64,000 nucleotides of DNA from a virus (IMGVR_UViG_3300045988_131126), one strand, 5' to 3'; positions 11,035 to 45,470 are shown, counted from the first letter of the stretch. Numbers and translations: made by a program. The notes: generated by a model not told the origin, from the letters alone.

Positions 11035-11060
11035 TTTATAATCTTCCTTTCTTGAAAATA

Positions 11061-11092: not shown

Positions 11093-11095
11093 ATA

Positions 11096-12058
11096 TTATT
11101 CTTCATCTACGCTTTCAAATTCTTTAATACTATTAAATATTGCTTCGTAGTCTCCCTCAATAATACAAATAGGAGAGTCTTTTACTTTAGCTTTATCAAG
11201 TACACTTTTATATGAAGCTATAAGCGTATCTCTTGTGTATTTAGTGGATCCAAAGTATGTTTCAAATAATGGATTATTACCTTTAGTTCTAGCTTCACAA
11301 ATATACTCTTTAGAAATACATCTATTATTAGATACAAGATTATTGACGTTTTTGTAAGATATTGCAAATGTTTTGTATCTATTTCGAATAACGTTTCTAA
11401 ATATGTAACCTGCATTATCAATATCTTCTAAGCATAATACGGCATCTTGCATTCTTAAATAATCGCCTAATAATAGATGATACATATTATCAGATTCCAT
11501 ACAGATATTTACAAAATTAAGAGCATCTAATACGGATTTCTGATAGTCATCATTTTCTGATATATAAATTAATCTAGGTATAATAATATTATCATTATAT
11601 AAAGATTTTACATTAGTTACATAAGTTCCATTTACAAATTCCGTATTAAAGAAATAATACGGATATTTATTGGCAAACATTTTCGGAGTAATATCTGAAT
11701 GATTTACAATGTTTACTGTATATATATTGCACATTGCTAATCTTTCTTCTGATATCATTTTATGTTTTTCTTTCATAGTTTCTATGATATCATCAGGAAG
11801 ATTATATATTCTTTTCAATACTACAAACTGGTTTGATGGATTGAATTGCACAAAGCAAGAAGAATTCTCGAATGTAATGATTCCCTCTTCTTCATTAAAT
11901 TCATATCTCTTAACTTTATCTACATCTCCACCGCCAATACAAATATATGTATTTAAAATTCTTTCATCTGGGTTTAAAAATTCTGATCCTCCAATTGGGT
12001 CTTCTAAACATAAGTACTGCTTATTTTCGATTGCTTTAATAATATCTTTATTATTCAT
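11096..12058 (-). CDS. hypothetical protein (320 aa)
   Basis: ATGA overlap with the upstream gene. Followed by a terminator. Confidence 0.75.
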   Translation of the reverse strand: MNNKDIIKAIENKQYLCLEDPIGGSEFLNPDERILNTYICIGGGDVDKVKRYEFNEEEGIITFENSSCFVQFNPSNQFVVLKRIYNLPDDIIETMKEKHKMISEERLAMCNIYTVNIVNHSDITPKMFANKYPYYFFNTEFVNGTYVTNVKSLYNDNIIIPRLIYISENDDYQKSVLDALNFVNICMESDNMYHLLLGDYLRMQDAVLCLEDIDNAGYIFRNVIRNRYKTFAISYKNVNNLVSNNRCISKEYICEARTKGNNPLFETYFGSTKYTRDTLIASYKSVLDKAKVKDSPICIIEGDYEAIFNSIKEFESVDEE

Positions 12059-14007: not shown

Positions 14008-14631
14008 TTATTTTGATTTGAGTATTGGAGAATCCAAAGGTAATGGTTTCTCTGTTGTAAAATCTGCAGGATAAAATTCTTGAGAAGTAATATATTGATT
14101 ATTCCTTCTATATTCATGTATACTGTATTTTAATTTTCTTCCGCTAATTTTATCATTTTCATTAAATTCTATACGAGTAATTTCCCTATACGTTTCATCT
14201 ATTAATTCAGTATATGGGAAAATTGTATAGTCTCCATCTGTAATATCAGGATCTTCTACCGCCGTGATTATCCAGTTATCAATACAGAATGATAATGCTT
14301 CATATGTAGATAATCCTCCTATTACACAAAATGTAGCTGCAGGATTTCCGATTATAATCTGTTTAATTTGATCAAGATTATAGTATGCTACATTTGGTAC
14401 TATATATGGACAATGTGTTTTATCATTAGTTAATACCAAATGAAATCTATTATCCAATGGAAAATATTCTTCATCAAATGTTTTTCTTCCTATAATCATA
14501 TTTGGATATAATGTAGTAATTGTTTTAAACCTGTGCATATCTGATGGTAAATTATACATAAGCTTACCATCTTTAGACATTTCGCCATTTGGTCCGATAC
14601 ATACTAATGCTATTACTGTCGCTCTTTCCAT
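14008..14631 (-). CDS. folA: dihydrofolate reductase with about 45 aa C-terminal extension
   Basis: LPSDMHRFKTIT...MIIGRKTFDE and VIGGLSTYE match the DHFR motifs (LPxDxxxFK, MGRKT(W/F)ES, VIGGxxxY). Confidence 0.8.
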   Translation of the reverse strand: MERATVIALVCIGPNGEMSKDGKLMYNLPSDMHRFKTITTLYPNMIIGRKTFDEEYFPLDNRFHLVLTNDKTHCPYIVPNVAYYNLDQIKQIIIGNPAATFCVIGGLSTYEALSFCIDNWIITAVEDPDITDGDYTIFPYTELIDETYREITRIEFNENDKISGRKLKYSIHEYRRNNQYITSQEFYPADFTTEKPLPLDSPILKSK

Positions 14632-15447: not shown

Positions 15448-16992
15448 TTAGTTACTTTTACTCATTTTCTGTAACTGCACTAATTCATCTGCAGTATATA
15501 ATTTTCTTCCTAACGATACAAATGTATTAGTATTAATTATGACATCTCGCTGATGATTCAACCTATTATCAAACGATCCATCATTCCTACTAATATACAT
15601 ACTCTTCGCAGGATTAAATACTCTATTTGCTGCACGATAAAATTCATCATTTATAATATACCAAATATTCAATGTATCACCGTCAAAGTCAGCACCCAAT
15701 GATACAAGGACACCGAGAGGTAATTCCATAGTATAGGAATATGTTATACCTACACAATACATCTGTAATATAGATCCATAGTTAATGGTTGGGTTTCTAT
15801 TAATAATAATAGGAATACCTTTCCCGCTCTTATGTTTCTTGATCATACTTTCAATGATTCTTACGATTAATGGATCTGTATTTATCTTTGCTGCATACCA
15901 TCTATTGTATGCATCCTGAGAAGATAAATTATATGATTTCTTAAGAATATTGATAATGGAAGCATGTAATAATTCCACTAAAGAATTATAGCTAAGTAAT
16001 ACTTGATCGTTTCTTAATTTCGGATTAGATACAATTACACATCTACCTGTAAAGTTATATCTACCAGCAAATAAAGATCTAATTGTACCTTTCTTACCTT
16101 CACAAATTGTAACGATATTATCATATAATTTCATGAATTCTACTTGAATATCGTATAATAATTGTGCTGTAGGTTTAATCTTCTTATTAGAATTAAACTT
16201 AGATTTGGCAAAGTTTAATTCAGATACTAACTTATTAATCTTAGTATAAATAGCATTAGATTCTTCAAAATAGAATGATTCTTTATCTTCATTGAATGGT
16301 CTAAGCATTGTACTGAATACAGGAATAGATTGAGTAAATACTTTATCTCTATTCTCCATAATATTCTTATAATACTCGATTTTATTTGGAAATTTTGCTT
16401 TATAATAATCCATAATCTCATCAAACCTATTATGGAATTCTACCATACCAATTCCATAGAATGGTTGATCTTCGTTCTCGATTATATGGATATGTCCATC
16501 TTCATCAATCTGAGCATCATATTTGATAATACTATCTAATTCTGTTTTACCTATTAAGAATTCAATAGATTTAAATAGATTACAATGTATAACAAAAAAA
16601 TCGTCAGATTGGATTACTATCCAACCTGTGTATCTGGGATTTGTTTCTACATTCTCTACTTTCTGTCCGCAGAATTTACATTTTAATCCAAGATTAATCT
16701 TGGATCTTGTCATTCCACATTTACATCTAAATGTATTCTGGAATTGATCTTGATCAGAAAGATTGTTTCCATATTTAGATGAAAATATAGAATGATCATC
16801 TTTAAGATCTTTTTTGATTCCATTTGTGGGAGATACAATAAATCCGTTACCAGATCTAATGTCTTGCACTCTCTCTTCGTCGAAATTGATTCTTTCCAAT
16901 TCCGTTGTGAATATCCAGTCTGGATTATGCGGATATGAATAAGTAAAATCCAATCCAACCCTTCCATCTGGAAGTTTCTTTAGACATTTCAT
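15448..16992 (-). CDS. phage multisubunit RNA polymerase, beta-prime N-terminal fragment (zinc ribbon to catalytic DFDGD)
   Basis: CKCG...CKFCG zinc motif, NRNPT, and GADFDGDTLNIW, which corresponds to the NADFDGD Mg-binding loop. Has its own SD AAAGGAG. Confidence 0.85.
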   Translation of the reverse strand: MKCLKKLPDGRVGLDFTYSYPHNPDWIFTTELERINFDEERVQDIRSGNGFIVSPTNGIKKDLKDDHSIFSSKYGNNLSDQDQFQNTFRCKCGMTRSKINLGLKCKFCGQKVENVETNPRYTGWIVIQSDDFFVIHCNLFKSIEFLIGKTELDSIIKYDAQIDEDGHIHIIENEDQPFYGIGMVEFHNRFDEIMDYYKAKFPNKIEYYKNIMENRDKVFTQSIPVFSTMLRPFNEDKESFYFEESNAIYTKINKLVSELNFAKSKFNSNKKIKPTAQLLYDIQVEFMKLYDNIVTICEGKKGTIRSLFAGRYNFTGRCVIVSNPKLRNDQVLLSYNSLVELLHASIINILKKSYNLSSQDAYNRWYAAKINTDPLIVRIIESMIKKHKSGKGIPIIINRNPTINYGSILQMYCVGITYSYTMELPLGVLVSLGADFDGDTLNIWYIINDEFYRAANRVFNPAKSMYISRNDGSFDNRLNHQRDVIINTNTFVSLGRKLYTADELVQLQKMSKSN

Positions 16993-17695: not shown

Positions 17696-18940
17696 TTATT
17701 TATCCTCCCATTCTCCGAATACTGTATCAAGTGGTATTTCAGTTAACTGCTCTGTGGAATCGTGGAAAGACTTCATTGATATATTTTTCAAAGTAGAAGG
17801 AATTTTAGATTCTGTTATACCAGCATTCTTTATACCTATTCTGTATAACATATTACCTGCACACTTATTACATATACCTGTCTTAGATTCACACATAGAA
17901 GCAAATCTGAACTTGACAACTTTATTTAAATAGTTATCTACATTTTCAGATGTCAATTCTACAAGCTTGCCTTTATCGACTATATAAGAATACATCCAAA
18001 ATGATACATTCTTTTTGGTTAAATGAACTTCTACTGTATCTTTTGTATGACAATCTGATCCAGGAGCATCTAACGTGACATGCTGTAGTGTATATACAAA
18101 TAACTTTTCCCAATAACCACCATCGGCAGTTTTTCTTGCTCGTTTAAATGGACCAGCAGCTAATGAGTTAGCTATCAATGAATATTCATCTGCTTTGATT
18201 CCGTCTATATAGTTGGATGTAGCAAATTTGTATTTCTGTTTAGCATAAGGATCAGGATCTTTAATAACTCCTTTTACAACGAATATATTCTTAAAGTTAT
18301 TACCTACAGATCCTCTAGCACCAGAATTATATACATCCATAGACGGATCGTCTCCCATATAATCTAATGCATACTGTAATAATTCCTTCTCGACTTTATT
18401 ACCTACAACTTCATCCCCTCTGTCTAATGCTTCTTTATTTTTTGCTAAAAGTTCTTCTTTCTTTTTCTTAATAGCATCACTACAAGTAAGCATTTTATCA
18501 GTATAATTAGGAGCAAGTATAGTTACATAAGGCATTATCTTTTGTGTCTTATTTAAATAATGCTTTAAATAATCAAGCTGTATTTTATCTTCCAATAAAG
18601 CATAAGATAATTTCTTATTAATATCTCCAAATAAATCATCATCTACAGACTTATTTATATAATGAAATAAATCGAATAATTCATTTTCAAAAAAGAATTT
18701 ATTATATATAAATAAACCTACTGTAGTAGTAAATGAATTTTTGTTTTTCTTTTGCGGATTTGGACCGTAAGAATTTGCAGGAATAGTGACTATATCATAC
18801 GGATTATATTTTCTTTTTCCATCAAATTCTCCAAAAGTCTCCATTATAAAAGATAGAGTTATATCTTCTTCTTTTAAATCAACCAGGGCTTTTATTTCAT
18901 CTGGATTAGTGATCATTTTTGATTTACGTTTACTAGCCAT
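17696..18940 (-). CDS. phage multisubunit RNA polymerase, beta-prime middle fragment (region F bridge helix to first half of trigger loop)
   Basis: NSGARGS; EYSLIANSLAAGPFKRARKTADGGYWEKL resembles the bridge helix ([22 protein letters not shown]); CNKCAG and MKSFHDS resemble MRTFHTGG. Confidence 0.8.
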   Translation of the reverse strand: MASKRKSKMITNPDEIKALVDLKEEDITLSFIMETFGEFDGKRKYNPYDIVTIPANSYGPNPQKKNKNSFTTTVGLFIYNKFFFENELFDLFHYINKSVDDDLFGDINKKLSYALLEDKIQLDYLKHYLNKTQKIMPYVTILAPNYTDKMLTCSDAIKKKKEELLAKNKEALDRGDEVVGNKVEKELLQYALDYMGDDPSMDVYNSGARGSVGNNFKNIFVVKGVIKDPDPYAKQKYKFATSNYIDGIKADEYSLIANSLAAGPFKRARKTADGGYWEKLFVYTLQHVTLDAPGSDCHTKDTVEVHLTKKNVSFWMYSYIVDKGKLVELTSENVDNYLNKVVKFRFASMCESKTGICNKCAGNMLYRIGIKNAGITESKIPSTLKNISMKSFHDSTEQLTEIPLDTVFGEWEDK

Positions 18941-22341: not shown

Positions 22342-22389
22342 AAGTAATTCCTCCTTGTATTTTATTCACGATTATAATATACAAAAGAA

Positions 22390-24565: not shown

Positions 24566-27124
24566 TTAATCTAAATATACATAGTCTTCTATCAAACAGC
24601 TATCTTTAAACGTAATTTTTGTATTGCTTCTCATATTATCAGCATTTCTTATATACTCTTCCCATTCGTATGTATGAATAAATGATTCTAATTTATCCTC
24701 TATACTTATAGTATCATCATATACGATGGTTATTAATAGATTAACTATCTTGTCAAATACAGGAATAAATTCGTTTGGTATAAACGGTTTGAACCAATAG
24801 ATATCCATATACATTTTATCTTTAGGTACGCATTTACTCATATAAGTAATATGATTTAAGAAATGTTTAAAATCATCAGATTTAATATACTCAGGGAATT
24901 CTTCTGATACATTATAAATCATATCATCTATTACAGGTATTCTATTTTCATATATATCATCGAATATATACATATTATTTGTATGGATCAGATCTACTTT
25001 GTGGGACTTAAAAAACATTATTACTTCAAATAAGTATTCTTTAATATAATCTAATGACACAGTAGGTATATTCTGGAATATATATTTAAACTCATCTCTA
25101 TCTATATATAAATATATATTTTCTGTAATATAATTTATATATTTAGATATCTCCAATTGTCTTTCACTTTTCTTAGTAATAGATTCACATTTCTTTATTA
25201 TTGTATATAATGGAGCGCACTTATCTCCTAATACTTCTCTATAAGTTTTAGGAGGTTTTCCATTGTTTCCATATTTATTAAAGTATCCAAAATTGCATTT
25301 AGTTATGAATAATGCTTCATATAAATCGTGATATATATCCCACTCTCTTCTATTATTAGCATTATACATAGCTTCTTGTAAATATTTGTACACTTTCTTA
25401 TTGGATCTATATACTTCTACTAATTGATCAAAAGATAATATAGTATTAGGATTTTTAAATCCACTTATTCCTACATCTTCTGGTGTTAATCCTTTATTAG
25501 CTAAATCAGAAGTTATTAATTCCATATTAGCTTCAAAATTAAAGCCTTTTATAGCTAACGCTTGCACTGGATCGTAGATAATATTATCTTGTGTTTCGTT
25601 ATATAAATACATCAGACTATATAAGCATATCATTAAATCTACTAATTCAAATTCTGTTTTACTATTTAATTCTGGTACTTGTAGTTTTACCATAGTTAAA
25701 TCTATATCAGAATACAGAATCATATTAATGAAATATGCTAATTGGAATGACATTTCTGCTACAGAATATATTGCTGATACTGATATATATTTAGTAATTC
25801 TAGCATTAAATATTCTTTCGGATATAGTATGCTTTACAAATTCTTTAGTATAAAATCCTTGCCAATATATATCTTCTCCAGCAATATCGTCATATTTCTT
25901 CCAATTTCTTTTATCTCTTACACATTCATCAAAACTACTATTCTCAAATGGCACTTTTAAGAAAGTTAATTCATAATTATTATCAACGTCATCTATATCA
26001 TCTCCTGTTTTAGGATCTTCTATGACGTCATTTCTATATTCTCCATTTTCATCAAATAATGGTACTTTCATTAACCAATATTTGAATAATTGGATATTAT
26101 CAAAACCGAATAATTTAGATATATCTATCAGGTTCTTATCACATGATTTATATTTAATTAATCTATTTAAATTCTTTACTAATCTTTTCTGATATTTTAA
26201 TGGTATATCAGGGAAGAATTCTACACCACATGAATCGAATATATATTGTATAGTACGTAAATCAAATACATCTCTTCTTATGATATATTCTGGTGCTCTT
26301 ATAATCATATCATCAAAAGCCTGTACTATAATCATTATCATCATTATTCTATCATAGTATTTATTTCTATATTTATATGCATCAGAATAAGAAGTTTGCA
26401 AAAAATAAACTCTATTTATTTCGAGTCTTTCCACAAACTTATTGTATACTTCAGTAGTTTCTACTGGAGGAATATATAATACTGAAAACTTTTGTGCTCT
26501 TCTAGCAAAATTAGGATCTATTTTCTTTTCTCCTAAATGCCATAAATACTTACATTTTAAATCACCGTTATCATCTAACGTATCTTTATACATTGATTTA
26601 TATTTATCTATTATACCAAATGCTTCTAATATAAGTATTTGATCATTAGTCATTTTATGTATTGGATTTCCATCATTCTCAAAATTTACTGTTATAGTAT
26701 CTAGATCTTCTCTAGTTAAATATATACCAGGATCTCCTACATTAGGTAATCCATTAAGCATTCTATAATAATTATTTAATTCTTCATAATTCTCTAAAAA
26801 TCGATTTTTAGCTAACTCAGTCAATTGAGGTTTGATACTATCAGGAATAAGAGAATTGTCACGAGCATATGTAAGACAATCTCTACGGGATAGTGTTGGT
26901 ATTCTTTTTAATAGTAATATGTCATATTTAAACATGGTAAAATTATAAGTACCTCTTATAATATTAGCATATATATCAGACTGTCTTAAAGATTCTACTG
27001 TTTCATTTTCATCAGCTCTTGTTTCATCCTTTAATATCAATCCATTCATCATTATCTGACATTGATATATGATCTCGTCTAATAGAGGATATTCAGACGC
27101 CTGTTTGCGAATTTCTTTGTCCAT
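24566..27124 (-). CDS. large hypothetical protein (852 aa); structural role possible
   Basis: SD GAGGAGAA. ATTTATGTAAT motif upstream. No catalytic motif seen. Confidence 0.8.
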   Translation of the reverse strand: MDKEIRKQASEYPLLDEIIYQCQIMMNGLILKDETRADENETVESLRQSDIYANIIRGTYNFTMFKYDILLLKRIPTLSRRDCLTYARDNSLIPDSIKPQLTELAKNRFLENYEELNNYYRMLNGLPNVGDPGIYLTREDLDTITVNFENDGNPIHKMTNDQILILEAFGIIDKYKSMYKDTLDDNGDLKCKYLWHLGEKKIDPNFARRAQKFSVLYIPPVETTEVYNKFVERLEINRVYFLQTSYSDAYKYRNKYYDRIMMIMIIVQAFDDMIIRAPEYIIRRDVFDLRTIQYIFDSCGVEFFPDIPLKYQKRLVKNLNRLIKYKSCDKNLIDISKLFGFDNIQLFKYWLMKVPLFDENGEYRNDVIEDPKTGDDIDDVDNNYELTFLKVPFENSSFDECVRDKRNWKKYDDIAGEDIYWQGFYTKEFVKHTISERIFNARITKYISVSAIYSVAEMSFQLAYFINMILYSDIDLTMVKLQVPELNSKTEFELVDLMICLYSLMYLYNETQDNIIYDPVQALAIKGFNFEANMELITSDLANKGLTPEDVGISGFKNPNTILSFDQLVEVYRSNKKVYKYLQEAMYNANNRREWDIYHDLYEALFITKCNFGYFNKYGNNGKPPKTYREVLGDKCAPLYTIIKKCESITKKSERQLEISKYINYITENIYLYIDRDEFKYIFQNIPTVSLDYIKEYLFEVIMFFKSHKVDLIHTNNMYIFDDIYENRIPVIDDMIYNVSEEFPEYIKSDDFKHFLNHITYMSKCVPKDKMYMDIYWFKPFIPNEFIPVFDKIVNLLITIVYDDTISIEDKLESFIHTYEWEEYIRNADNMRSNTKITFKDSCLIEDYVYLD

Positions 27125-27149: not shown

Positions 27150-27160
27150 ATTACATAAAT
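27150..27160 (-). promoter_or_regulatory. ATTTATGTAAT motif upstream of 24566..27124
   Basis: Reverse complement of ATTACATAAAT. Lies between a terminator and the SD. Confidence 0.4.
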
Positions 27161-27178
27161 GTGCTAATCATATAAAAG

Positions 27179-27207
27179 AATCCACTATATCTAAGATATA
27201 GTGGATT
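27179..27207 (-). terminator. rho-independent terminator
   Basis: AATCCACTATATCT / AGATATAGTGGATT stem, then TTCTTTTAT. Confidence 0.65.
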
Positions 27208-27214: not shown

Positions 27215-28150
27215 TTATAAATTAATGTAATGTGGCTCATTACGATTTAATTCCGTTTTGTTTACTTTATTAATATTTACGCCTTGTAAAGGTCTTAAGT
27301 TTCCCACATATTTTTCTATTATTGAAATATTTTTATTACAAAGAGCTATTTGTTTTGATACTAATTCAACAGGTTTAAGTGCATAAAATTTTATATTACT
27401 GGAAATATTAGTTATACTCATAGCGGCATTGATACGATTATTAGCTTTAGAATCTTCGCTATTTTTTTCATCCTCTTTTTCCCATTTTTTACATAACTTT
27501 TCCGCATTCTCCAATGTAGATAACACATTATCGTAATTTGATTTCGCCAATTTCAAAAGTTTTTCTGCTTCGTCTAAGTCTTTTTCTATATTTTCGAAAT
27601 GTTTTTTATCAATATAATTGAGATCTACTGCTCTGTAATAATCTTTTTCATCAAAAGTTCTTTTACCTGGAACTAAGTTTTCAAAATTACCAATACCACT
27701 AAATTTAATTTTAAATTTTTTATGGTCTTCTTCAAATTCCTCATTAGAATTATAATTGTATTTGTCAACTTTATTTACAAACTCTGCAAATATACTTAAA
27801 GTATTTTTTGTTGTGTTTACCATTTCTTTACATAATCCTATGCCTCTTGGAGTTATATATTCATATGTAACGTCGACTTTAATTTTTTTACCTTTATCGA
27901 ATCTCTTTCTTAAACGGGTATTTTTTATTTTCCCATTTTTGATTTTATTAAATAATTCTGGAATTTTCTTTGTAAATAAATCTTTAATAAATTCTATTAT
28001 TTCTTTTAATTTACTAATCGCAAAACCCCATGCTTTTTTTGCAACAGATTTTACATCTTCTTGCACATATTGTGCTGATTCGAGAGCTATACTCAATATC
28101 TCTATTTGTCCTTGATCGTAGAGATAATCACTTTCTAATAAATAATCCAT
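27215..28150 (-). CDS. MDYxxE-family paralog 1 (311 aa)
   Basis: N-terminus MDYLLESDYLYDQGQIEILS...KKAWGF...IKDLF is shared with the 4 other genes in 29.2-34.0 kb. Confidence 0.75.
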   Translation of the reverse strand: MDYLLESDYLYDQGQIEILSIALESAQYVQEDVKSVAKKAWGFAISKLKEIIEFIKDLFTKKIPELFNKIKNGKIKNTRLRKRFDKGKKIKVDVTYEYITPRGIGLCKEMVNTTKNTLSIFAEFVNKVDKYNYNSNEEFEEDHKKFKIKFSGIGNFENLVPGKRTFDEKDYYRAVDLNYIDKKHFENIEKDLDEAEKLLKLAKSNYDNVLSTLENAEKLCKKWEKEDEKNSEDSKANNRINAAMSITNISSNIKFYALKPVELVSKQIALCNKNISIIEKYVGNLRPLQGVNINKVNKTELNRNEPHYINL

Positions 28151-28163
28151 TTCTATATTCTCC

Positions 28164-28174
28164 TTTACAATAAT
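28164..28174 (-). promoter_or_regulatory. ATTATTGTAAA motif upstream of MDY paralog 1
   Basis: The motif abuts SD AAAGGAGAA. Confidence 0.35.
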
Positions 28175-28220
28175 CTATTAATTGATTGTGAAAAAATAAA
28201 ATTATTTAATTATTAAAAAT

Positions 28221-28248
28221 AAGGGGTAGAGAATATTCTCTACCCCTT
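28221..28248 (-). terminator. rho-independent terminator
   Basis: AAGGGGTAGAGAAT / ATTCTCTACCCCTT stem, then ATTTTTAAT. Confidence 0.7.
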
Positions 28249-28253
28249 ATATA

Positions 28254-28553
28254 TTATAGTCCTATTTTATTCATGGCCAATATAGCCATTTTGTTATATT
28301 TAGTACCGCCTTGATCTCTTCCTAAATAAGGAATGCCATCCATAGGTACATCGTATCTCAATGAGAAATAATCCATTATGTCTTTCTCGTTATTGTAGTT
28401 TTTGTCATTCTCACATCTAGCAACGTAAGAATTGACTACACCCACCTTCTCAGGTGTGTTCATTTGATCATAGTTGTCTTCGAGATTTATTTGTGAATCC
28501 CATAAATCTCCTATAGTTTTAATATTATTATTTTTAAATGAATAATTAGACAT
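28254..28553 (-). CDS. small hypothetical protein (99 aa)
   Basis: ATG 28553 (MSNYSFK...) with SD AAAGGAGGA. The longer track ORF lacks an SD. Confidence 0.6.
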   Translation of the reverse strand: MSNYSFKNNNIKTIGDLWDSQINLEDNYDQMNTPEKVGVVNSYVARCENDKNYNNEKDIMDYFSLRYDVPMDGIPYLGRDQGGTKYNKMAILAMNKIGL

Positions 28554-28677
28554 AATAATGTCCTCCTTTGTAATAATATTAATATAGCTATTCAACCATA
28601 TCAATATAATAATATACAATTATATATTTCTTATTGTACACTTTTAGGGAGGATAAAAGCATCATAACCCAATATGG

Positions 28678-29115
28678 TTATGATGCTTCGTTCTGATTTG
28701 GCGTAGTGTTTATTTCGGTAGCATAAGATATTACTGCTAGTTGTATTTTTTCATATATTATGTCTTCTAATTTCTGATCATTATAAATATATTTTAGCTT
28801 CTGTAATTGCAATTGAGATATATTATTAAGAATTTTAGTTAATATATATTTTTCCATATTAGAAATATTTTCATCAGACATATATTGAATACCATTAGGT
28901 TCATTTACTATAATATGATATTTGCTGACTTCTTCAGTTATCATTAAATCTATAATATCAAAATCTTCTTTTTTAGGTTCTATAGTCATTTCTAATTTTA
29001 ATAATTCTAAATCATTTTTCTGATGTAAAGAATTCGTTATGCTTACCATTAATATTAAAATTGTTATAGAAAAGCATAATATTATTGATAAAATTATAAG
29101 ATATATGTAATCCAT
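28678..29115 (-). CDS. N-terminally membrane-anchored hypothetical protein (145 aa)
   Basis: MDYIYLIILSIILCFSITILILMV TM helix. SD GGGAGGG. Confidence 0.7.
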   Translation of the reverse strand: MDYIYLIILSIILCFSITILILMVSITNSLHQKNDLELLKLEMTIEPKKEDFDIIDLMITEEVSKYHIIVNEPNGIQYMSDENISNMEKYILTKILNNISQLQLQKLKYIYNDQKLEDIIYEKIQLAVISYATEINTTPNQNEAS

Positions 29116-29138
29116 ATTCTACCCTCCCGATTTATCGT

Positions 29139-29170
29139 ATTTACAAATAATTAATATATTAATATGTAAA
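29139..29170. promoter_or_regulatory. divergent pair of ATTATTTGTAAAT (minus) and ATTAATATGTAAA (plus) motifs
   Basis: Lies between divergent genes 28678..29115 and 29188..30033. Confidence 0.4.
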
Positions 29171-29187
29171 GTGAGGTTATAAAATAT

Positions 29188-30033
29188 ATGGACTACTTAA
29201 TGGAAGCAGATATATACCGATATAATTGCGAAATAAATATATTAAGTGAAACTGCAATTTGCTATATAAACGAAGATAATAAACTTGAAAAAGTAGCACA
29301 TATTATTGCAGAAAATCTAAAAAAGATCATAGAAAAAATAAAGGAATTTATTCGTGATGTGATAAAACCGAAAATAAAGAAAATCAAAGATAAAATAACA
29401 GAAATAAAGACTAAAAATATTGCTAAAAAATTTGAAAATAATAAAGAAATAAAAATAAGAAATATTGCTAATGCGTCATTCCGTGAATTAGATCCTAAAT
29501 TAGAACCAGCTGTAACAGAATTATTAGAGAATGCTGATAATATAAGTAATACAATGGAACTATTTGTGAAAAAATTTACTTTTGCTAAAGATGAAAGTAA
29601 TTTGCAAGAATATTTTACGAAATACCAAAATGACACACAAAAATTTCTCGAATTAAAGCATATAGATAAAAATGATGTAGAAAGCAATCCTTTTCCAATA
29701 GAAAAGTATAATAAAATAATAAAAATAAAATCTTTCAGTAAAACTGATTATGAAAAATATACTAAAGATCTCGAATCTATGAGTAAATTTTATGATAATA
29801 TAAATAAAAAATATGATACATTTACAGAAAGATTAGATAACGTATATGGTATTATTCTCAAAAATAATAATAATACGGTACTTCCGACTAATATAGTAAA
29901 TTTGATTATGGAACATATTAATATTAGTCGTAGATATATGGGAGTTGCAAGAAATATAATAGATAACAGAATATCGTGCGATGCAAATAATATTAAACTT
30001 ATGGAATTATGTTTGGGAAAAGATGAAGCATAG
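29188..30033 (+). CDS. MDYxxE-family paralog 2 (281 aa)
   Basis: MDYLMEADIYRYNCEINILS.... The 5' region is shared with paralog 3. Confidence 0.75.
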   Translation: MDYLMEADIYRYNCEINILSETAICYINEDNKLEKVAHIIAENLKKIIEKIKEFIRDVIKPKIKKIKDKITEIKTKNIAKKFENNKEIKIRNIANASFRELDPKLEPAVTELLENADNISNTMELFVKKFTFAKDESNLQEYFTKYQNDTQKFLELKHIDKNDVESNPFPIEKYNKIIKIKSFSKTDYEKYTKDLESMSKFYDNINKKYDTFTERLDNVYGIILKNNNNTVLPTNIVNLIMEHINISRRYMGVARNIIDNRISCDANNIKLMELCLGKDEA

Positions 30034-30105
30034 ATACTTAGTATCTATCTCAATTTATCATCTACAAATAATTAATATACAAAGTAAGTGAGGTTATAAA
30101 ATATT

Positions 30106-31044
30106 ATGGATTATATAATGGAAACAGAATTGCTTAATTATGAAACGCAAATAAATATGCTCAAAGAAGCAGCTTATAGTACTCGCATAGACGAATCTTT
30201 GATTACTGAGGAATTTTCTATCAAGAAAGCATGGGACTCTTTTGTAAAATGGCTTAAAGAAAAAGTAGGTCCGATAATTAAAAAATTATTCAATTGGGGT
30301 AAAGAAGTGGTATCTTCTGAAGAAAAGAAAGATGAAAAAGCAAAAGAAGATATAGATTTTATATTAAAATATCAAAACCAAATGAAAAATGCTTATGCCG
30401 GAAATGCCATAGAAAAGAAAAAAATATGTCTGTATGCGCTTGATGCGAACTCTGAAGAACCGGTAGTGGATATTGTAGTGAGAAATGATACTTCTCCAAT
30501 AGATGTCCACATATTCGGACTTAAACGAAGTTCTTTCATATTGAAAACAATACTTGGAATGAGTAATGAAAAATTTGAAGAAGAAAAAAAAGAGCATATG
30601 AAAAAACAAGAAGAAATAAATAAATTGAAAATAAACGATATTGAAAAATGTTTTTACAAAAAAGAAATTAGGGATGACTGGTTGATCAACGATGCCTACT
30701 ATATCACAAATTCTATGAAACGTATAGTCGAAGATAAAAATGGTATTAAAGACGCAGAGAAAAATCTCAGTGCAATAAATGATATATATTACTCCATGCA
30801 GAAAGAGGTAAATGATTTTGATAAAAAATATGGAGGCAGTCCAGATGAAGGGGTTAAAAATACTATAGCTTATGGAAATATGGTTGTTAAAGAAATTATC
30901 GATACGGGAACTGTTATTAGAACTTGTATCCAATTATACAAAAAAGATAAAGATCATCAATATATGTTTTTAAAACAAGTTAAAGCTTTAATGAAAGAAG
31001 CACTCGATAGAGGAGAATCTGTAGCTGTTCCTGATTTTGCATAA
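30106..31044 (+). CDS. MDYxxE-family paralog 3 (312 aa)
   Basis: MDYIMETELLNYETQINMLK...KKAWDSF...IKKLF. Confidence 0.75.
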   Translation: MDYIMETELLNYETQINMLKEAAYSTRIDESLITEEFSIKKAWDSFVKWLKEKVGPIIKKLFNWGKEVVSSEEKKDEKAKEDIDFILKYQNQMKNAYAGNAIEKKKICLYALDANSEEPVVDIVVRNDTSPIDVHIFGLKRSSFILKTILGMSNEKFEEEKKEHMKKQEEINKLKINDIEKCFYKKEIRDDWLINDAYYITNSMKRIVEDKNGIKDAEKNLSAINDIYYSMQKEVNDFDKKYGGSPDEGVKNTIAYGNMVVKEIIDTGTVIRTCIQLYKKDKDHQYMFLKQVKALMKEALDRGESVAVPDFA

Positions 31045-31049
31045 TTTAT

Positions 31050-31081
31050 ACTCCTAACCTCTAATTAAGGAGGTTAGGAGT
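31050..31081 (+). promoter_or_regulatory. 12-bp-stem hairpin enclosing the SD of gene 31085
   Basis: ACTCCTAACCTC-TAATTAAG-GAGGTTAGGAGT. AAGGAGG (31067..31073) lies in the loop and 3' arm, 4 nt before ATG 31085 counted from the end of the hairpin. Confidence 0.5.
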
Positions 31082-31084
31082 TCT

Positions 31085-31810
31085 ATGGACGAAAATAAAG
31101 TAAATGAAATACCTGATATATATTTTGAATTTGACGAAACGCAAAACCCTATAGTATCTTCTCCTAATAGTGAATTTTCTATACAGTTTGAACAAACCAA
31201 AGAATCTTTGCTAGAGATAGATACTTATAAGAATTTTATATCAAATGCTGTTGCTCAGTTTAGGCATTCTAGATTCTATAAGCAATATAAATCATATTTA
31301 ATAGATCTAGGTCTAAATAGATGTCAATACTTTCCTAATATTACAGTAGATTTATTAGGAGCTAATGGTATAGAAATGCATCATAATTTTTTAACTATTT
31401 ATGATATAGCGCTTATGATATGTGAGCATGTATTAAATACAGAAGGCCATATTACTACATTTAAATTAATTCATCTATTGAAAGAAGAGCATTCTGAAAA
31501 TAGAATACCCATAGTAATGCTTTCTAAAACAGTACATCAAATGTATCATAATAATGAAGAATTTGTTATACCTGCAAGTCAATGCTTTGGATTCTGGATG
31601 GAGTTATTATATAAGTATAGAAATGGTATTACTATCAATATAGCAAATAAAGTAATAAATTTCTTACAAGCTAGTCTAGAAGAAATAAAAGGTATAAATA
31701 GTTCTTCTAATTATGCTAATACTCTGTTACAATTAAGAGATCATGTATACAATTGGTCTATATATAATGAATATCTAGATAGAGCTAAAATAGGACAAAT
31801 AGTATATTAA
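31085..31810 (+). CDS. hypothetical protein with HH...TVHxxxH motif, paralog of 44549..45397
   Basis: FYKQYKSYL...IEMHHNFLTIYD...LSKTVHQMYHN...FVIP aligns by eye with EYRQLVNYL...IHIHHCPFTLYE...LAETVHDLVHK...LFIP. Confidence 0.7.
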   Translation: MDENKVNEIPDIYFEFDETQNPIVSSPNSEFSIQFEQTKESLLEIDTYKNFISNAVAQFRHSRFYKQYKSYLIDLGLNRCQYFPNITVDLLGANGIEMHHNFLTIYDIALMICEHVLNTEGHITTFKLIHLLKEEHSENRIPIVMLSKTVHQMYHNNEEFVIPASQCFGFWMELLYKYRNGITINIANKVINFLQASLEEIKGINSSSNYANTLLQLRDHVYNWSIYNEYLDRAKIGQIVY

Positions 31811-31814
31811 AAAT

Positions 31815-31843
31815 ATCCCATATACCAATTCGGTATATGGGAT
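31815..31843. terminator. bidirectional terminator between convergent genes
   Basis: ATCCCATATACC / GGTATATGGGAT stem flanked by A/T runs. Confidence 0.65.
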
Positions 31844-31848
31844 AAAAT

Positions 31849-32975
31849 TTATGCGGCTTCAGAAGAAGATCCTGCTGCAATAGCTGACAAATATCCAGCT
31901 AAAGTGACTTTATACTTAATCACGAATTGAGCTGATGTGTTTATTATTTCGTTGCTTCTAGTAACATGCTTTCTGAAAAATTGCATATCGCTACCGAAAG
32001 CTCCGTACGCATGATAGCCTTTTCTTCCTTCCATTTTATGAATCTTATCGACGTATAATTGTACTTTTTGTCTAACTTTTGCTAATTCTTTGTCAGATTG
32101 GCTAATTATTTTTTCTAATCTATCTTGAATACTATCAATGTATTTTTTATTGGTATTAATAACCTGAATTATTTCTTTGTGAATTTTTCGTTTTCCTTCA
32201 GATAACTCTTGAATTGTGTAAGTTTCATCTTCTAGAAACGCTTTTGCTGGATTGTAATATTCAGCGTGCAATCCATACCTAACTGCAATTTCTCTTTCAG
32301 AGAATCGGTTTTCGCTTTTAGAAAACTTATCATAATTGTTTTTCTCAGGATTTTCAAAATCTAACGATTTAAATAATTTATCCATGCTATTAATGCAAGA
32401 AGATATAGCATGGATATTCTGTTGAGCAGATGCAAGAAATTCTCCAACTTTTTGCGTATTTATAGTCTTTACAGTACATCTTCCAGGTTTTGCATTCGTA
32501 TCCGTTTTTGATACATTTCCTTTAGTTATTGGAATTATATCAGATTTAGTATCGGTATTATCATTGTCTGATCCTGATTTCTCTATTTCTTTGTCTTTCA
32601 TTTCTATCTGTTTATTGAGATTCATAGTTATTCTCATGATATTACTTACTGTTTTGGTAGCTTTAGATTCGGCCTGTTCAGGGGTTGCTTTATCAATATT
32701 ATCTGCAGCTTGTTCAGCTTTCTTTTCTGCAGATTCATATGCAGCATCTGCTACTTTGGATTTTCTAAAAACAAAATCTAATATCTTTTTCAAAAATCCT
32801 CTTGCGCTGTCGATCCATCCTAAAACAGTTTTACCTATATTCTTAATTTTTCTTTAATATTAGCTCCTTCGTTTACAAATTTATTTTCATCTATTCCGAT
32901 GCATTCTAAAGAATACTCAAGCATATTCAATTGATTACATCCTTCATAGATATCGGCTTCTAATATATAATCCAT
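31849..32975 (-). pseudogene. MDYxxE-family paralog 4, interrupted by a -1 frameshift at an A5 run (pseudogene, sequencing error or slippage site)
   Basis: The ATG 32975 ORF (MDYILEADIY...EKLRI*) stops at 32835. The body ORF is open from 32853 to 31849. Joining the two at GAAAAAT (32846..32852) gives ...NIKEK/IKNIGKTVLGWIDSARGFLKKILDF, which matches the family KKAW...IKKLF region. Confidence 0.6.
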
Positions 32976-33000
32976 ATCATTATTCTCCTTTAAACTAAAT

Positions 33001-33011
33001 TTTACAATATA
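33001..33011 (-). promoter_or_regulatory. TATATTGTAAA motif upstream of MDY paralog 4
   Basis: Located about 10 nt before SD AAAGGAGAA (about 25 nt before ATG 32975). Confidence 0.35.
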
Positions 33012-33084
33012 TATTAATATTATGCAACATACAGGAAAATCAAAACACATTTCTATAAAGTATAATATAAAAGGAGATTAAAAG

Positions 33085-33981
33085 ATGGATTATATATTAG
33101 AAATGGACATATTAAACGAATCTGCACAATTTGATATGAGAAATACTATAATAGAATCTTTTGAATTAGAAGCTATTAGAGAGGGATTTTCTAGAAAATC
33201 ATTAGCAAACTTTTTTAGAAAAGCCGTAGAAATGGTAACAGGATGGGCAAATACATTAAAAGCTTGGGCGACCAAAATATTCGGTCCCATTATAAATAAA
33301 TATAAAAAATATAGAGCCGCAAATCTTAACAAAGCGTATCAATCAGGAAAAATGATCAAAGTAAATTGTCCTTACTACGAGGTAAAGGTTAAAATATTTA
33401 ATGCTGCATTGGCAGAAGGAAATAATAATCAGAAAAATATTTTTGAAGGGATAAAATATATAGAATCCAACATAGATAAATTTCTGTCTAAAAAAATGAA
33501 TGTTAATCTTGGTGATGAAAGAATTTGGAAAATGATAAAAACAGATAGGTCTCAGCTTCCAGCTCCGTTAAATAAAGCGAGTAAAATTGAAGATTTTATG
33601 ACTAAATACAATTTTGGATATGTAGATAAGGAACTTGTTAATTTGATACTTCAAAATCAAAAAAACTTAGATATAATGAGTAAAAGTATTGATAATAATA
33701 TAAAGCAAATATTACAATTATATGCAGGAATTAACGAAAGAGCAGAAAAATACGAAAATATGATGTCCAAAGACTCCGGGGAAGATATGCCAGGAGCAGC
33801 CGATGTTGTTCATTGCTATAATATACTGCTTAAAGGTACAGCATTAACTGGAAATATATTTAATTCCTTACGGACTATAGCAATGAGAGGAATTAATGAA
33901 TATTGTAATGTAGTAAATAAAATTATGAAAGCAATTGGAGCTGATTCTCAACCAGCTAGCGCAGCAGCTGGAATGCAGTAA
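33085..33981 (+). CDS. MDYxxE-family paralog 5 (298 aa)
   Basis: MDYILEMDILNESAQFDMRN.... SD AAAGGAGA. Confidence 0.75.
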   Translation: MDYILEMDILNESAQFDMRNTIIESFELEAIREGFSRKSLANFFRKAVEMVTGWANTLKAWATKIFGPIINKYKKYRAANLNKAYQSGKMIKVNCPYYEVKVKIFNAALAEGNNNQKNIFEGIKYIESNIDKFLSKKMNVNLGDERIWKMIKTDRSQLPAPLNKASKIEDFMTKYNFGYVDKELVNLILQNQKNLDIMSKSIDNNIKQILQLYAGINERAEKYENMMSKDSGEDMPGAADVVHCYNILLKGTALTGNIFNSLRTIAMRGINEYCNVVNKIMKAIGADSQPASAAAGMQ

Positions 33982-34006: not shown

Positions 34007-34040
34007 TATACCCCATAAGCGAAATTGCTTATGGGGTATA
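34007..34040 (+). terminator. hairpin terminator after MDY paralog 5
   Basis: TATACCCCATAAGC / GCTTATGGGGTATA stem. Weak T tract. Confidence 0.55.
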
Positions 34041-41546: not shown

Positions 41547-41598
41547 AATTGTTATCTAGTCCTTTCTTAGTTTAGTACTTATATAATATACAAGACAA

Positions 41599-42328: not shown

Positions 42329-43216
42329 TTATTCTGCAACTGGGATATTCTTTATTTGATCGTGATGTTTGTAATCAATAAGTTTGATATCCGATTCAGT
42401 GAAATCGTAAAATGATGGTTCTTCTTTGTTGCAACTTAATTCATATTTTGGAGCTTCGTAAGGCTCTCTAATGATCATCTCTTTAATCATGTCTATATGC
42501 CTATCATAAATATGACAATCACCAATTTGATGAATTAATTTTCCTGGTGTATATCCTGTAGCTTTAGCAATAAAAATAAGCAGAGCTGCATACTGACATA
42601 CATTCCAGTTATTTGCGGTTAAGAAATCTTGAGATCTTTGCGTAAGCATCATATCAAGATACTTAGTCCCGCTTTTATCTGTTCTTACATTCCATTGCGT
42701 TAAAAATGCGCATGGCTCTAATCCCATTTTAGAAAGATCATCTATATTATAAATGTCTGTAATAATTCTTCTAGAGGTGGGATTATGTATTAATTCATTA
42801 ATGATATAGTCTGTCTGGTCAAGTTCTAAAATTTCTCCAGTACAACTTCCATCACTATGCAAGCATTCTACGCTTACTGGTCTGAATCTATGTCCAATTT
42901 GATATCCATAAGCTAATCCGATCTTTCCATCAGATGTAGCCCATTGATCCCAAATATGGGAATTTAATTCTTTAATGTCATTGGATTTCTTCTGGAAAAT
43001 CCATAAAATTTCATCTACACAAGCTTTAAGATTAATAGGTCTTAAAGTCAATGCAGGAAACTCTCCTTTAGATAAATCGTATACTGTGTGTACATCAAAT
43101 ACTTTTAATGTTTTTGCTGGAGTTCCATCTGGCCATATAGCTCTTACCGGAACTTCTTCACCTTCATCTAAAATTCTTTTTGCAGTTTCGATAAACTTCT
43201 GATCTGCATAACTCAT
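42329..43216 (-). CDS. thyA: thymidylate synthase, B. subtilis ThyA / phage ThyP3-like subtype
   Basis: ILWIFQKKSNDIKEL..IWDQWA..GLAYGYQ, SRRIITDIYN, EPCAFLTQWNV (catalytic Cys), QRSQDFLTANNWNVCQYAAL (Asn retained), GDCHIYDRHI. True start is ATG 43216 (MSYADQKF...) with SD AAAGGAGAG. Confidence 0.9.
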   Translation of the reverse strand: MSYADQKFIETAKRILDEGEEVPVRAIWPDGTPAKTLKVFDVHTVYDLSKGEFPALTLRPINLKACVDEILWIFQKKSNDIKELNSHIWDQWATSDGKIGLAYGYQIGHRFRPVSVECLHSDGSCTGEILELDQTDYIINELIHNPTSRRIITDIYNIDDLSKMGLEPCAFLTQWNVRTDKSGTKYLDMMLTQRSQDFLTANNWNVCQYAALLIFIAKATGYTPGKLIHQIGDCHIYDRHIDMIKEMIIREPYEAPKYELSCNKEEPSFYDFTESDIKLIDYKHHDQIKNIPVAE

Positions 43217-43268
43217 AGTTTGTTCTCTCCTTTTTATATGTAATTTTATAAGAAAGTTGCCCAAGATA

Positions 43269-43976
43269 TCAAAAATGATATCTTGGGTCAATTAACTTTT
43301 TATATTTATTGATTTCTTCTATAGTGAAATTAGATAATTTTTCTATAGGTCTTAATAAAATAGGAATGTTTTCTGAATACTGTAAAGATTCTCTTGTACT
43401 ATTATCTACATAATCATTGCACTCCAGCATCTTTATCATCGTTTCTTTATCTATTTTTCCTATACCTACAGTTCCATTATGTTGATCAAATTTGGACATA
43501 GCCTTTTCTACTTCGCTATCTTTATTAAAATTTATATGTCCTTTAATATGGAAGAAAGATACATCAATATTATATGTAATAATCATATTCATGATACTAG
43601 TTATAATATTCTGATTTGCTACCTTTTCTCCAGATGAATTTAATAGATATCCTTTATCATCTAAAGTCCATCCATCAAACCATTCTCTTAACCCTTTGAC
43701 AGATATAAGCGAATCACTAAATATATTAATATATTTTGGCTGTTCAGACATTAATCGTCTTGCGTCAAAAGCCAGTTGTACAGCCATTTGTATGGCATAA
43801 ATTTCGCCGAAATTATTAGTAGTATTTCTATTGATTTGTATTTGTTCGGCAAGTTTCTGATCTCCAATCATAGCAACAAATCCAGAAGCTGAATCAAATC
43901 CATAATTCATATTTCTGACTGATGCATCTGTGAAGATATTTAATGTTGTTGGTTTAAAATTGATTCTTTCATTCAT
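43269..43976 (-). CDS. rnhA: ribonuclease HI with C-terminal extension
   Basis: IFTDAS, TNNFGEIYAIQMAVQLA, INIFSDSLISVKGLREWFDGW, HIKGH...ECNDYVD match the E. coli RNase HI D10/E48/D70/H124/D134 blocks. Confidence 0.85.
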   Translation of the reverse strand: MNERINFKPTTLNIFTDASVRNMNYGFDSASGFVAMIGDQKLAEQIQINRNTTNNFGEIYAIQMAVQLAFDARRLMSEQPKYINIFSDSLISVKGLREWFDGWTLDDKGYLLNSSGEKVANQNIITSIMNMIITYNIDVSFFHIKGHINFNKDSEVEKAMSKFDQHNGTVGIGKIDKETMIKMLECNDYVDNSTRESLQYSENIPILLRPIEKLSNFTIEEINKYKKLIDPRYHF

Positions 43977-44026
43977 AAGCTAATTCTCCTTTTCTTAAAT
44001 TTCATATAAATAATATACCAACAAAC

Positions 44027-44548: not shown

Positions 44549-45397
44549 CTATACAGATGTGTACAAATCCGAATAATCATGATAAATAGGCATAATCATA
44601 TTACCATCTTTAGAATAATCATGATATATCGGATTTATCATAATTACATTATTATCGTAAGTATTAGTTCCAATAGCTTTCTGTTCTGGCGCACCTTTAA
44701 TCTCTTTTATTCTATTAAACATAGAATCTATCAAAGCTTCCATATTCTCTGCATTTGGAATTATGTACGATCCTTCTTCTGGTTTCAGTTCTATATAAAC
44801 AGGTTTTCTTTCTAAAATAGACATATTATACGATTGATTATATAATTCTGTCTGTTTTCTCATAGCTTCCAATTTAGTCTTGCTCTCTTCTGGTATAAAT
44901 TGAGAGTAATTTTGTTCAAATAATTGATAGTTTCCCATTACATTATCTAATGGTATAAATAATACTTGCTTATGTACTAAATCGTGTACAGTCTCTGCTA
45001 GCGGTATTAAACCAACCATTAAGAAGTAATGCAGATACATTACTTCGTGAGCTACAAGTTCTATATTTAAAGGTTCTCTCATGTACATACGTTTATTAAA
45101 TACTGTAATAAAATATTCGTATAATGTAAATGGACAATGATGAATATGTATTTTTATCTTAAAAGATTCCTCATTAGATACATTTTGAAATATACTGCAC
45201 TTATTCATATCCATATAATCTCTTAGATAGTTGACAAGTTGTCTGTATTCAAATGACCCTCTTATGAGTTTTTCTCCATCAGCTACATATTTAGCAAAAT
45301 CTTTTTTATCAAATAAATCATATTCTTCTTCACAGAATGGTGGTATGTTATCCATTACAAGTATACTTTTATCTTCGTATACTGTTAAATCGTTCAT
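44549..45397 (-). CDS. hypothetical protein with HH...TVHxxxH motif, paralog of 31085..31810
   Basis: ATG 45397 with SD GAGGTG. The C-terminus carries a PIYHDYS x2 repeat. Confidence 0.7.
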   Translation of the reverse strand: MNDLTVYEDKSILVMDNIPPFCEEEYDLFDKKDFAKYVADGEKLIRGSFEYRQLVNYLRDYMDMNKCSIFQNVSNEESFKIKIHIHHCPFTLYEYFITVFNKRMYMREPLNIELVAHEVMYLHYFLMVGLIPLAETVHDLVHKQVLFIPLDNVMGNYQLFEQNYSQFIPEESKTKLEAMRKQTELYNQSYNMSILERKPVYIELKPEEGSYIIPNAENMEALIDSMFNRIKEIKGAPEQKAIGTNTYDNNVIMINPIYHDYSKDGNMIMPIYHDYSDLYTSV

Positions 45398-45470
45398 GTT
45401 TATCACCTCTTATTATTTTACCTAATTGTATACTATATTAATAATAAAAGAAAAGGAGGAAGTTGTAATT

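Follow-up and report, generated by a model that had tools for sequence, protein, structure and literature searches.

Within a 64,000-nucleotide stretch of viral DNA (IMGVR_UViG_3300045988_131126, hereafter the window), five genes whose products begin with MDYxxE lie in mixed orientation within 6.8 kb (positions 27215-33981). We label them p1 to p5 (Table 1). The five genes are real paralogs and most probably related, at great divergence, to the internal head ('inner body' or ejection) proteins of phiKZ-type phages. Taken as a whole, the cluster is probably a lineage-specific expansion of phiKZ_IP-type (PF12699-like) internal head proteins in a gut jumbo phage related to AR9, PBS1 and phiKZ. 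The lines of evidence on identity agree, each being weak or indirect when considered alone. The initial annotation of the window did not recognize the family. It turns out to be a remote branch of a described family, PF12699, that is, a previously unannotated branch of a known kind and no new system.

Four of the five genes (p1, p2, p3 and p5) are, as annotated initially, intact open reading frames (ORFs) starting with MDY[IL][LM]E; the fifth, p4, is not a single ORF. All pairwise BLASTP alignments among the paralogs start at residue 1 of both sequences and score 25-35 bits. We built four subfamily profiles (p1/p2, p3, p4 and p5) that include orthologs from related contigs, and compared them using HHalign. 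Over the first 80 residues, every pair of subfamilies aligns with 94-98% probability (E-values from 1e-7 to 1e-12), the common module spanning 40-70 residues. The proposed N-terminal similarity thus persists in an all-vs-all statistical alignment. From residue 81 to the end, the probability between subfamilies is <4%. The strong divergence ascribed to the C-terminal bodies is therefore a property of different subfamilies and does not extend to p1 and p2: p2 resembles both p1 and a 291-residue allele of p1 from related phages along the full length (44-63 bits in the body). Since the leader codons differ among the copies, the leader is conserved at the protein level and there has been no recent gene conversion. 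A hidden Markov model (HMM) of the family revealed no sixth member in the rest of the window, and the membrane-anchored protein encoded within the cluster (TM145) does not belong to the family.

In all copies residues 1-35 are acidic (net charge -5 to -7, isoelectric point 4.1) and nearly lysine-free, while residues 36-100, which include a basic helix following the leader, are highly basic (net +2 to +14). A hydrophobic segment is absent from every protein (maximum Kyte-Doolittle value for a 19-residue window ≤1.17). The MDY start, E6 and a glutamate at residues 29-36 are invariant in the five copies of the window, both glutamates having I/L/V/M at position -2. The MDYxxE hallmark noted initially holds for these copies and not for the more distant phage L011/L012, in which position 6 is N or D and the second motif is retained. 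The truly invariant element is [V/I/L]-x-E at residues 29-36, found in all members and sister clades and, as (Y)[V/I/L]-Q-E-G, in a further clade. This column is a candidate cleavage site, although hydrophobic-x-E motifs are frequent throughout these sequences.

Standard Pfam and PHROG searches with the five paralogs produced no match at normal thresholds. An exhaustive HMMER profile search of 1.84 billion representative proteins returned 18 clusters only, indicating that the family is very narrow. Among these clusters are divergent p5-, p4- and p2-like sequences (P0034, P0035 and P0040) as well as P0041 (E 6e-5), the leader of which reads MRNIYDIIEEQK. With relaxed Pfam thresholds, one family recurs, namely PF12699 (phiKZ_IP, 'phiKZ-like phage internal head proteins'), which has a gathering cut-off of 27 bits. 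P0041 scores over this cut-off (35.7 bits, E 7.6e-9) and P0035 below it (16.8 bits); the E-values of other sub-threshold matches are 0.11 for P0034, 0.55 for the 291-residue allele, 1.5 for p1 and 2.3 for p2. The match of P0034 is weak and places its C-terminal part onto profile positions 285-385, while all the others align family residues ~26-133 with profile positions ~87-189. P0041 and a neighboring paralog also match three PHROGs annotated as 'internal head protein'. A family HMM constructed without these two proteins scores the neighbor at 36.7 bits, and many relatives of the neighbor carry PF12699 with E-values about 1e-24. In HHalign comparisons the window family matches this PF12699-annotated clade with 94.8% probability (E 5e-8), the individual subfamilies reaching 93% (p1/p2), 94% (p4), 88% (p5) and 3.9% (p3). 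phiKZ gp92-96, which we confirmed as PF12699 members, match the same clade with 94.6% probability, and the direct comparison of p1/p2 with gp92-96 gives 69% (P 4e-5).

P0041 is one of three paralogs with an invariant MRNIYDIIAEQK leader in L013, another metagenomic jumbo-phage lineage (positions 3216-4373, 8686-9801 and 10001-11110, + strand). Besides P0041 there is a 371-residue copy just below the PF12699 cut-off (23.7 bits) and a third copy linked by the family HMM alone (E 1e-15). Because the L013 lineage has the same leader-plus-variable-body layout, this design seems to be general for the superfamily. The MRNIYDIIAEQK clade (the L013 genes and P0059-P0074) shares with the window family an invariant leader, (Y)[V/I/L]-Q-E-G, an IEFIKK-type basic helix, a variable body and adjacent paralogs. 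However, its leader sequence is different, many of its members exceed the Pfam threshold, and both the phage lineage and the neighborhood are other ones. Searching isolated phages with P0041 (tblastn) detected no relative, nor did scans of IMG/VR and JGI data with the leader pattern, P0035 and P0041. A word-index search queried with the full-length alignment returned mostly p4 and p1 orthologs; queried with the leader alignment, it returned 8 fragments only. Sequence searches of solved structures gave no match.

The AlphaFold2 model of p1 has a predicted local distance difference test (pLDDT) score of 75 and a predicted template-modeling (pTM) score of 0.70. In the model of a p4 ortholog (P0002), a confident C-terminal domain (residues 165-370, pLDDT about 90) follows a low-confidence N-terminal half. 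Secondary-structure elements succeed one another identically in the modeled p1 and p4 bodies, as strand, helix, helix, strand, long helix and long helix (beta-alpha-alpha-beta-alpha-alpha). Because of this shared order, the apparently unrelated bodies probably represent a single fold diverged past sequence recognition. A Foldseek search of predicted viral structures with the p1 model identified almost exclusively jumbo-phage proteins, many of them annotated as virion proteins (AR9 A0A172JI05; 201phi2-1 B3FJ18, B3FJ20 and B3FJA9; proteins of Noxifer, Psa21 and SL2), with probability 1.0, template-modeling (TM) scores of 0.45-0.54 and E-values from 1e-4 to 1e-2. Among the best matches are BFVD models of AR9 A0A172JI05 and A0A172JIC4 and of the phiR1-37-like G4KKD6 (TM 0.47-0.54, probability 1.0), which come from the closest characterized phage group and have no detectable sequence similarity to p1. 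The fold-matched AR9 proteins were sought in 76 kb of the AR9 genome and were not located there. The fold of ClyA/MakA/AhlC alpha-pore-forming toxins was considered and rejected (PDB Foldseek with the p4 model: E 0.05-0.3, probability ≤0.3, TM 0.11-0.15; no hydrophobic segment).

The properties of the cluster can be set against those of characterized internal head proteins. PF12699 is common to phiKZ gp92-97, gp153, gp162 and gp163, which undergo proteolysis in the course of packaging, their roles having been termed an open question; ejection into the host has been shown for gp92, gp93, gp95 and gp97 only (bioRxiv 10.1101/2024.03.24.586471). Several of the phiKZ PF12699 genes tolerate transposon insertions (PMC12676376). 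In SPN3US, gp53 and gp54 ('paralog family A') are identical in the N-terminal 15 residues and otherwise extensively diverged, and propeptides of ~125 residues are removed from them by the prohead protease; such internal head members number two to seven per phage, and their propeptides are thought to resemble the capsid targeting sequence (CTS) of T4 (PMC5694885). The window family is similar in occurring in jumbo phages with their own multisubunit RNA polymerases, as clustered paralogs whose number varies between phages. Further common features are a conserved N-terminus on strongly diverged proteins, an acidic leader with x-x-E motifs, individual dispensability of the copies, the remote sequence link, and the fold similarity of the p1 model to virion proteins. 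There are differences as well. The window proteins are far under the Pfam threshold and shorter (281-375 vs 371-547 residues), and the leader is ~35 residues long as opposed to the ~125-residue propeptides of SPN3US gp53 and gp54 (PMC5694885); in phiKZ gp92-96 the Pfam domain begins at residue 58-180. Their genes are single-gene units of mixed orientation with their own terminators, whereas the phiKZ genes form one co-oriented operon. Finally, the putative site is [V/I/L]-x-E rather than S/A/G-x-E, and the window phage belongs to the AR9/PBS1-like branch.

T4-like phages differ in their sets of internal proteins, and the T4 CTS is MKTYQEFIAE. No sequence similarity was observed between this CTS and the window leaders (MDY[IL][LM]E...). 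A T4-style [IL]-x-E6 is present in the window copies; the corresponding residue is N or D in the L011 clade. In IPI, IPII, IPIII and Alt of T4, too, bodies that are unrelated or variable follow a short conserved tag at the N-terminus. This resemblance is a functional analogy only: the T4 tag has 10-20 residues compared with ~35 in the window leader, the window proteins are much larger (33-43 kDa), and T4 is without a PF12699 domain. The T4 tag ends in hydrophobic-x-E and is cut by the prohead protease, and the internal proteins are packaged with DNA and ejected (PMC5694885).

We compared the cluster with those of three close relatives (L001, L003/L007 and L006) and one distant lineage (L011/L012). 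The flanking genes are 93-100% identical, with synonymous divergence (dS) of 0.05-0.5 and a ratio of nonsynonymous to synonymous divergence (dN/dS) of 0.03-0.18. The number of copies of the family varies from 2 to 5. p2 was found in the phage of the window alone; the p1 slot is occupied by the 30%-identical 291-residue allele in L003 and in L006, and is vacant in L001; p5 is missing from L001 and C-terminally frameshifted in L003; and p3, with orthologs 56-59% identical, is split into 164 and 148 residues in L003. Orthologs of p3 and p4 together show 56-72% identity and dS of 0.6-1.1, with dN also raised and dN/dS of 0.24-0.35, which points to replacement by divergent alleles and relaxed but purifying selection, not to decay. 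As the copies are present or absent, replaced (by 30-70% identical alleles) or broken between flanking genes of 97-99% identity, the pattern argues for single copies being accessory genes subject to diversifying or fluctuating selection.

This turnover bears on the possibility that the proteins are made late and not retained in the virion, being instead scaffold- or core-like assembly proteins or helpers that have a common ancestor with internal head proteins and disappear at maturation through degradation or exclusion. The paralogs are highly charged helical proteins, of late type judging by promoter motif; moreover, the scaffold of giant phages is unidentified, and long propeptides have been proposed to act as core or scaffold (PMC5694885). 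Nevertheless, we consider an assembly role unlikely, since an essential scaffold would not vary from 2 to 5 copies, swap 30%-identical alleles or be frameshifted between near-identical phages, and the closest fold matches are annotated as proteins of the mature virion.

Expression signals provide another type of evidence. Each paralog has its own Shine-Dalgarno sequence, and an inverted repeat is found 3' of all five (that of p2 is short, 13 nt). The duplication of upstream regions reported initially for p2 and p3 is evident: the region upstream of p2 (TACAAATAATTAATATA...AAGTGAGGTTATAAAATAT) duplicates that of p3. Of the TGTAAA-type motif proposed to precede each paralog, a mild enrichment is seen (39 observed vs 25 expected), but ACA(N6)T[A/G] is better supported, and TGTAAA was downgraded as a promoter in its favor. 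The latter motif corresponds to the AR9 late promoter consensus, A(-11)ACA(N6)T A/G(+1) (PMC7598289). It occurs 30-55 nt before the ATG in 20 of the 68 genes, compared with 3.6 expected for random positions and 5.7 for shuffled upstream segments (maxima of 11 and 13 in 2000 trials). The genes having it include p1, p2, p3, p5, TM145, the virion genes at 4030, 22423 and 24566 and the gene for the 1624-residue polymerase subunit (48800). A different motif, GTATATTAT, resembles an annotated AR9 early promoter (AAATATATATTAT) and is likely an early promoter of the window phage, recognized by the virion RNA polymerase (vRNAP). A dozen or so genes have it 40-65 nt upstream, among them the beta gene of the non-virion RNA polymerase (nvRNAP) and the 99-residue gene of the cluster. 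The scan found no GTATATTAT ahead of the paralogs, the sole match being a loose TATAATAT 24 nt before p5. From the promoter motifs we infer late expression of the paralogs.

The initial annotation also offered host-takeover effectors as an explanation. Their early-expressed variant finds no support, since no early-type promoter was seen before the paralogs. A broader form, in which the proteins are host-interaction effectors (anti-defense, exclusion or takeover) made in the infected cell and not packaged, the leader serving folding, localization or regulation, appears quite improbable to us. Such effectors would be consistent with the allelic turnover, gain and loss, and a dN/dS of about 0.3 vs about 0.05 in neighboring genes, all of which resemble arms-race genes, and the cluster does hold an early-promoter gene and a membrane protein. 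However, the paralogs lack a conserved GTATATTAT, their late-type motif is common to virion genes, and both the homology and the fold links point at internal head or virion proteins.

The interrupted p4 deserves separate consideration. The region 31849..32975 comprises 1127 nt; after 46 codons the MDY frame runs into a TAG (32837-32835), and what follows, with the W and LKKIL parts of the module, is read in the -1 frame. An A5 homopolymer marks the point of frame loss, and one extra A there would restore the frame. Among 15 p4 orthologs from other assemblies (P0002-P0016), 12 are full length (367-397 residues; 367-384 but for P0005, which was called at 397 residues from an upstream ATG), and these read ...NIKEKIKNIGKT... 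through the break uninterrupted. A truncated 71-residue ORF call of p4 (P0026) is recorded for two contigs. A programmed frameshift was rejected as the default reading, because most orthologs keep a single frame and the sequence at the break does not form a canonical slippery heptamer. Other single-base A-run breaks affect p3 and p5 in L003, the fragments P0021-P0023 and a pair of 62 and 213 residues in L011/L012. In L011/L012, a phage of ~255 kb, this last pair is the fourth paralog, split at CAGAAAAATTAA (A5, -1 frame) at 11183-12039 (- strand) of L011 and at the same place in L012. The split is identical in the two assemblies, which are independent and from different samples, and its context is like that of the p4 break (GAAAAATTAAG). 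In our reading, the A-run breaks are genuine: dispensable genes have repeatedly lost function at homopolymers of lysine codons. Alternatively, the breaks may reflect sequencing error or on/off switching.

With at least one copy frameshifted in several genomes (p4 in the window, p3 and p5 in L003, the 62 + 213-residue pair in L011/L012), it might be argued that the cluster is merely decaying duplicated DNA, that is, dispensable relics with no current function and residual leader similarity. We find this hardly credible. Divergent alleles keep long open frames (dN/dS of 0.24-0.35 at dS of 0.6-1.1), the leader and [VIL]-x-E are kept across clades despite saturated synonymous change, and every copy retains its own ribosome-binding site, promoter motif and terminator.

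Several observations weigh against the assignment to internal head proteins. None of the five window proteins reaches the PF12699 cut-off (the best scores are 8.3 bits for p1 and 7.8 for p2), p3, the p4 ortholog and p5 have no direct match to the PF12699 HMM, and subfamily p3 joins the link via the leader alone. The link itself is transitive and depends on ~50 residues that form an amphipathic helix, whose K/I/E-rich composition can inflate profile scores. No homolog was found in the examined regions of AR9, phiR1-37 and Fusobacterium phages, and no prohead protease gene within the window. Since the sister clade does not conserve E6, cleavage cannot occur universally at the first hydrophobic-x-E. 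As for the structures, the p1 Foldseek E-values are marginal, and the p4 model matched generic helical bundles only in PDB and BFVD. Promoters were assigned by motif alone.

On balance, we favor the inner-body-like reading suggested initially, a packaging or targeting leader on diversifying cargo: P0041 exceeds the PF12699 cut-off, the family matches the annotated clade in HHalign (94.8%), the fold matches of p1 are jumbo-phage virion proteins, and the late-type motif is that of neighboring virion genes. We infer that the products are late-made, head-packaged internal proteins, probably processed by a protease and ejected, with a function in the host. Each gene would be an independent late transcription unit, read by nvRNAP together with other virion genes. 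In its product, the acidic leader of ~35 residues (MDY-hydrophobic..., net -5 to -7) would end at the invariant [V/I/L]-x-E, to be followed by the conserved basic amphipathic helix and the variable helical beta-alpha-alpha-beta-alpha-alpha body. Leader and helix would steer the protein into the assembling prohead core, and the prohead protease would probably cut the leader off at the x-x-E site. The basic mature protein would then remain with the packaged DNA and probably be ejected into the host alongside it. The bodies may diversify and be gained, lost, exchanged or inactivated because the copies are individually dispensable, perhaps host-specific.

On this assignment, the locus adds an uncultured lineage of gut jumbo phages to the internal head family, with members too divergent for standard annotation to pick up. 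A clean natural experiment is offered as well, in which internal-protein genes vary where flanking genes stay near-identical, and the short invariant leader with [V/I/L]-x-E is a candidate packaging and cleavage tag, possibly reusable. The main interest thus lies in natural cassette-like variation combined with a compact candidate packaging leader; should packaging not take place, the locus would be worth no more than a correct annotation. A more far-reaching view is that the MDY leader and the basic helix form a portable head-packaging tag, the bodies being a rapidly exchanged arsenal of ejected effectors (e.g. anti-defense, delivered ahead of gene expression) that co-circulating gut jumbo phages reshuffle by cassette replacement, with slippage at lysine-codon A-runs as an on/off switch. 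We regard this as conceivable, if rather unlikely.

Two short contigs join the leader to other sequences. In P0028 (L009, 636 nt) it is fused to a DNA polymerase B fragment directly past ...AIRE, and in P0025 (L010, 587 nt, coverage 1.3x) to a GNAT acetyltransferase at the A-run of the p4 frameshift. If true, these fusions would place the leader on foreign cargo. We set them aside as evidence for a portable tag; they are probable assembly chimeras, because the contigs are so short and that of P0025 has such low coverage.

The window belongs to a jumbo phage of ~274 kb that is AR9/PBS1/phiKZ-like and comes from metagenomes of the human gut. The placement is based on the split nvRNAP beta subunits, the large vRNAP-like subunit and the virion proteins encoded in the window (several further genes are annotated as 'virion structural proteins'). 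The p1 protein is identical to P0001, encoded on a 273,875-bp JGI contig, and relatives are carried on contigs of 250-280 kb from human gut samples, including Hadza. G+C content across the window is 25-33%. Megablast of the region against isolated phages identified no relative at the DNA level. The 852-residue virion structural protein that adjoins the cluster is 22-25% identical (tblastn) to virion proteins of Bacillus phages PBS1/AR9, Yersinia phage phiR1-37 and Fusobacterium jumbo phages. Synteny with the phiKZ inner-body operon was considered and rejected, phiKZ gp87 having no similarity to this protein.

Table 1. Features of the cluster and of the remaining window (positions counted from the first nucleotide of the window)
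Feature	Position	Strand	Remarks
p1	27215..28150	-	311 residues, subfamily p1/p2; intact ORF
p2	29188..30033	+	281 residues, subfamily p1/p2; intact ORF
p3	30106..31044	+	312 residues; intact ORF
p4	31849..32975	-	interrupted; leader ORF 32975..32835 (46 codons + TAG), body open in -1 frame from 32853 to 31849
A5 homopolymer in p4	32847..32851	-	frame lost here
p5	33085..33981	+	298 residues; intact ORF
Late-type motif ACAATCAATTA ahead of p1	28179..28189	-	AR9-late-type
Late-type motif ACAAATAATTA ahead of p2	29143..29153	+	
Late-type motif ACATATTAATA for TM145	29157-29167	-	mirror motif
Late-type motif ACAAATAATTA ahead of p3	30064..30074	+	
Variant motif GCATAATATTA ahead of p4	33015..33025	-	first base off consensus; weaker than others
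Late-type motif AACACATTTCTA ahead of p5	33044..33055	+	full match to AACA(N6)TA
Late-type motif ACATTTATGTA ahead of 852-residue virion gene	27152-27162		
Early-type motif GTATATTAT	28609-28617, 15653-15661, 3936-3944, 22374-22382, 41583-41591, 44010-44018	-	all on this strand
Hairpin terminator after p1	27182..27204	-	
Hairpin terminator of HH241 and p4	31817..31841	.	common to the two convergent genes
Hairpin terminator after p5	34010..34037	+	
Perfect hairpin, 30 nt	31051-31080	+	between p3 stop and HH241 start; contains HH241 ribosome-binding site AAGGAGG
99-residue gene	28254..28553	-	non-family; early-type motif TATATTAT at 28609-28616; kept in all relatives
TM145	28678..29115	-	non-family; 145 residues, N-terminally membrane-anchored; 92-99% conserved in relatives
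HH241	31085..31810	+	non-family; homolog of AR9 gp260/gp241, phrog_12252; BLASTP E 7e-13
852-residue virion structural protein	24566..27124	-	homologs PBS1 gp153, AR9 gp259, phiR1-37 g234; PHROG 20751
Split beta/beta'-like RNA polymerase subunit	15448-16992		
Split beta/beta'-like RNA polymerase subunit	17696-18940		
Large, vRNAP-like RNA polymerase subunit	48800-53674		1624 residues
Second copy of HH-motif protein	44549-45406	-	PHROG 12252 at E 3e-40
Dihydrofolate reductase	14008-14631	-	
Thymidylate synthase	42329-43291	-	
RNase H	43269-43976	-	
Long ORF	57196-64000	+	at least 2268 codons; runs past right window end

Both non-family proteins that the initial annotation had placed in the cluster, the membrane-anchored TM145 and the HH-motif protein HH241, are present. 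Conserved histidine pairs of the latter suggest possible metal binding. In AR9, gp260 adjoins gp259, the counterpart of the 852-residue virion protein, and the second copy of the HH-motif protein in the window mirrors the AR9 pair gp241/gp260. The perfect hairpin between p3 and HH241 could terminate p3 while gating the translation of HH241.

The long ORF at the right end of the window has a positive GC skew and raised G+C content, and possibly codes for a giant tail or tape-measure-like protein. Genes for thymidylate synthase (ThyA), dihydrofolate reductase (DHFR) and RNase H are also present. The pair of ThyA and DHFR genes suggests that, unlike AR9 and PBS1, the phage may do without uracil-DNA, or that it may make a modified pyrimidine.

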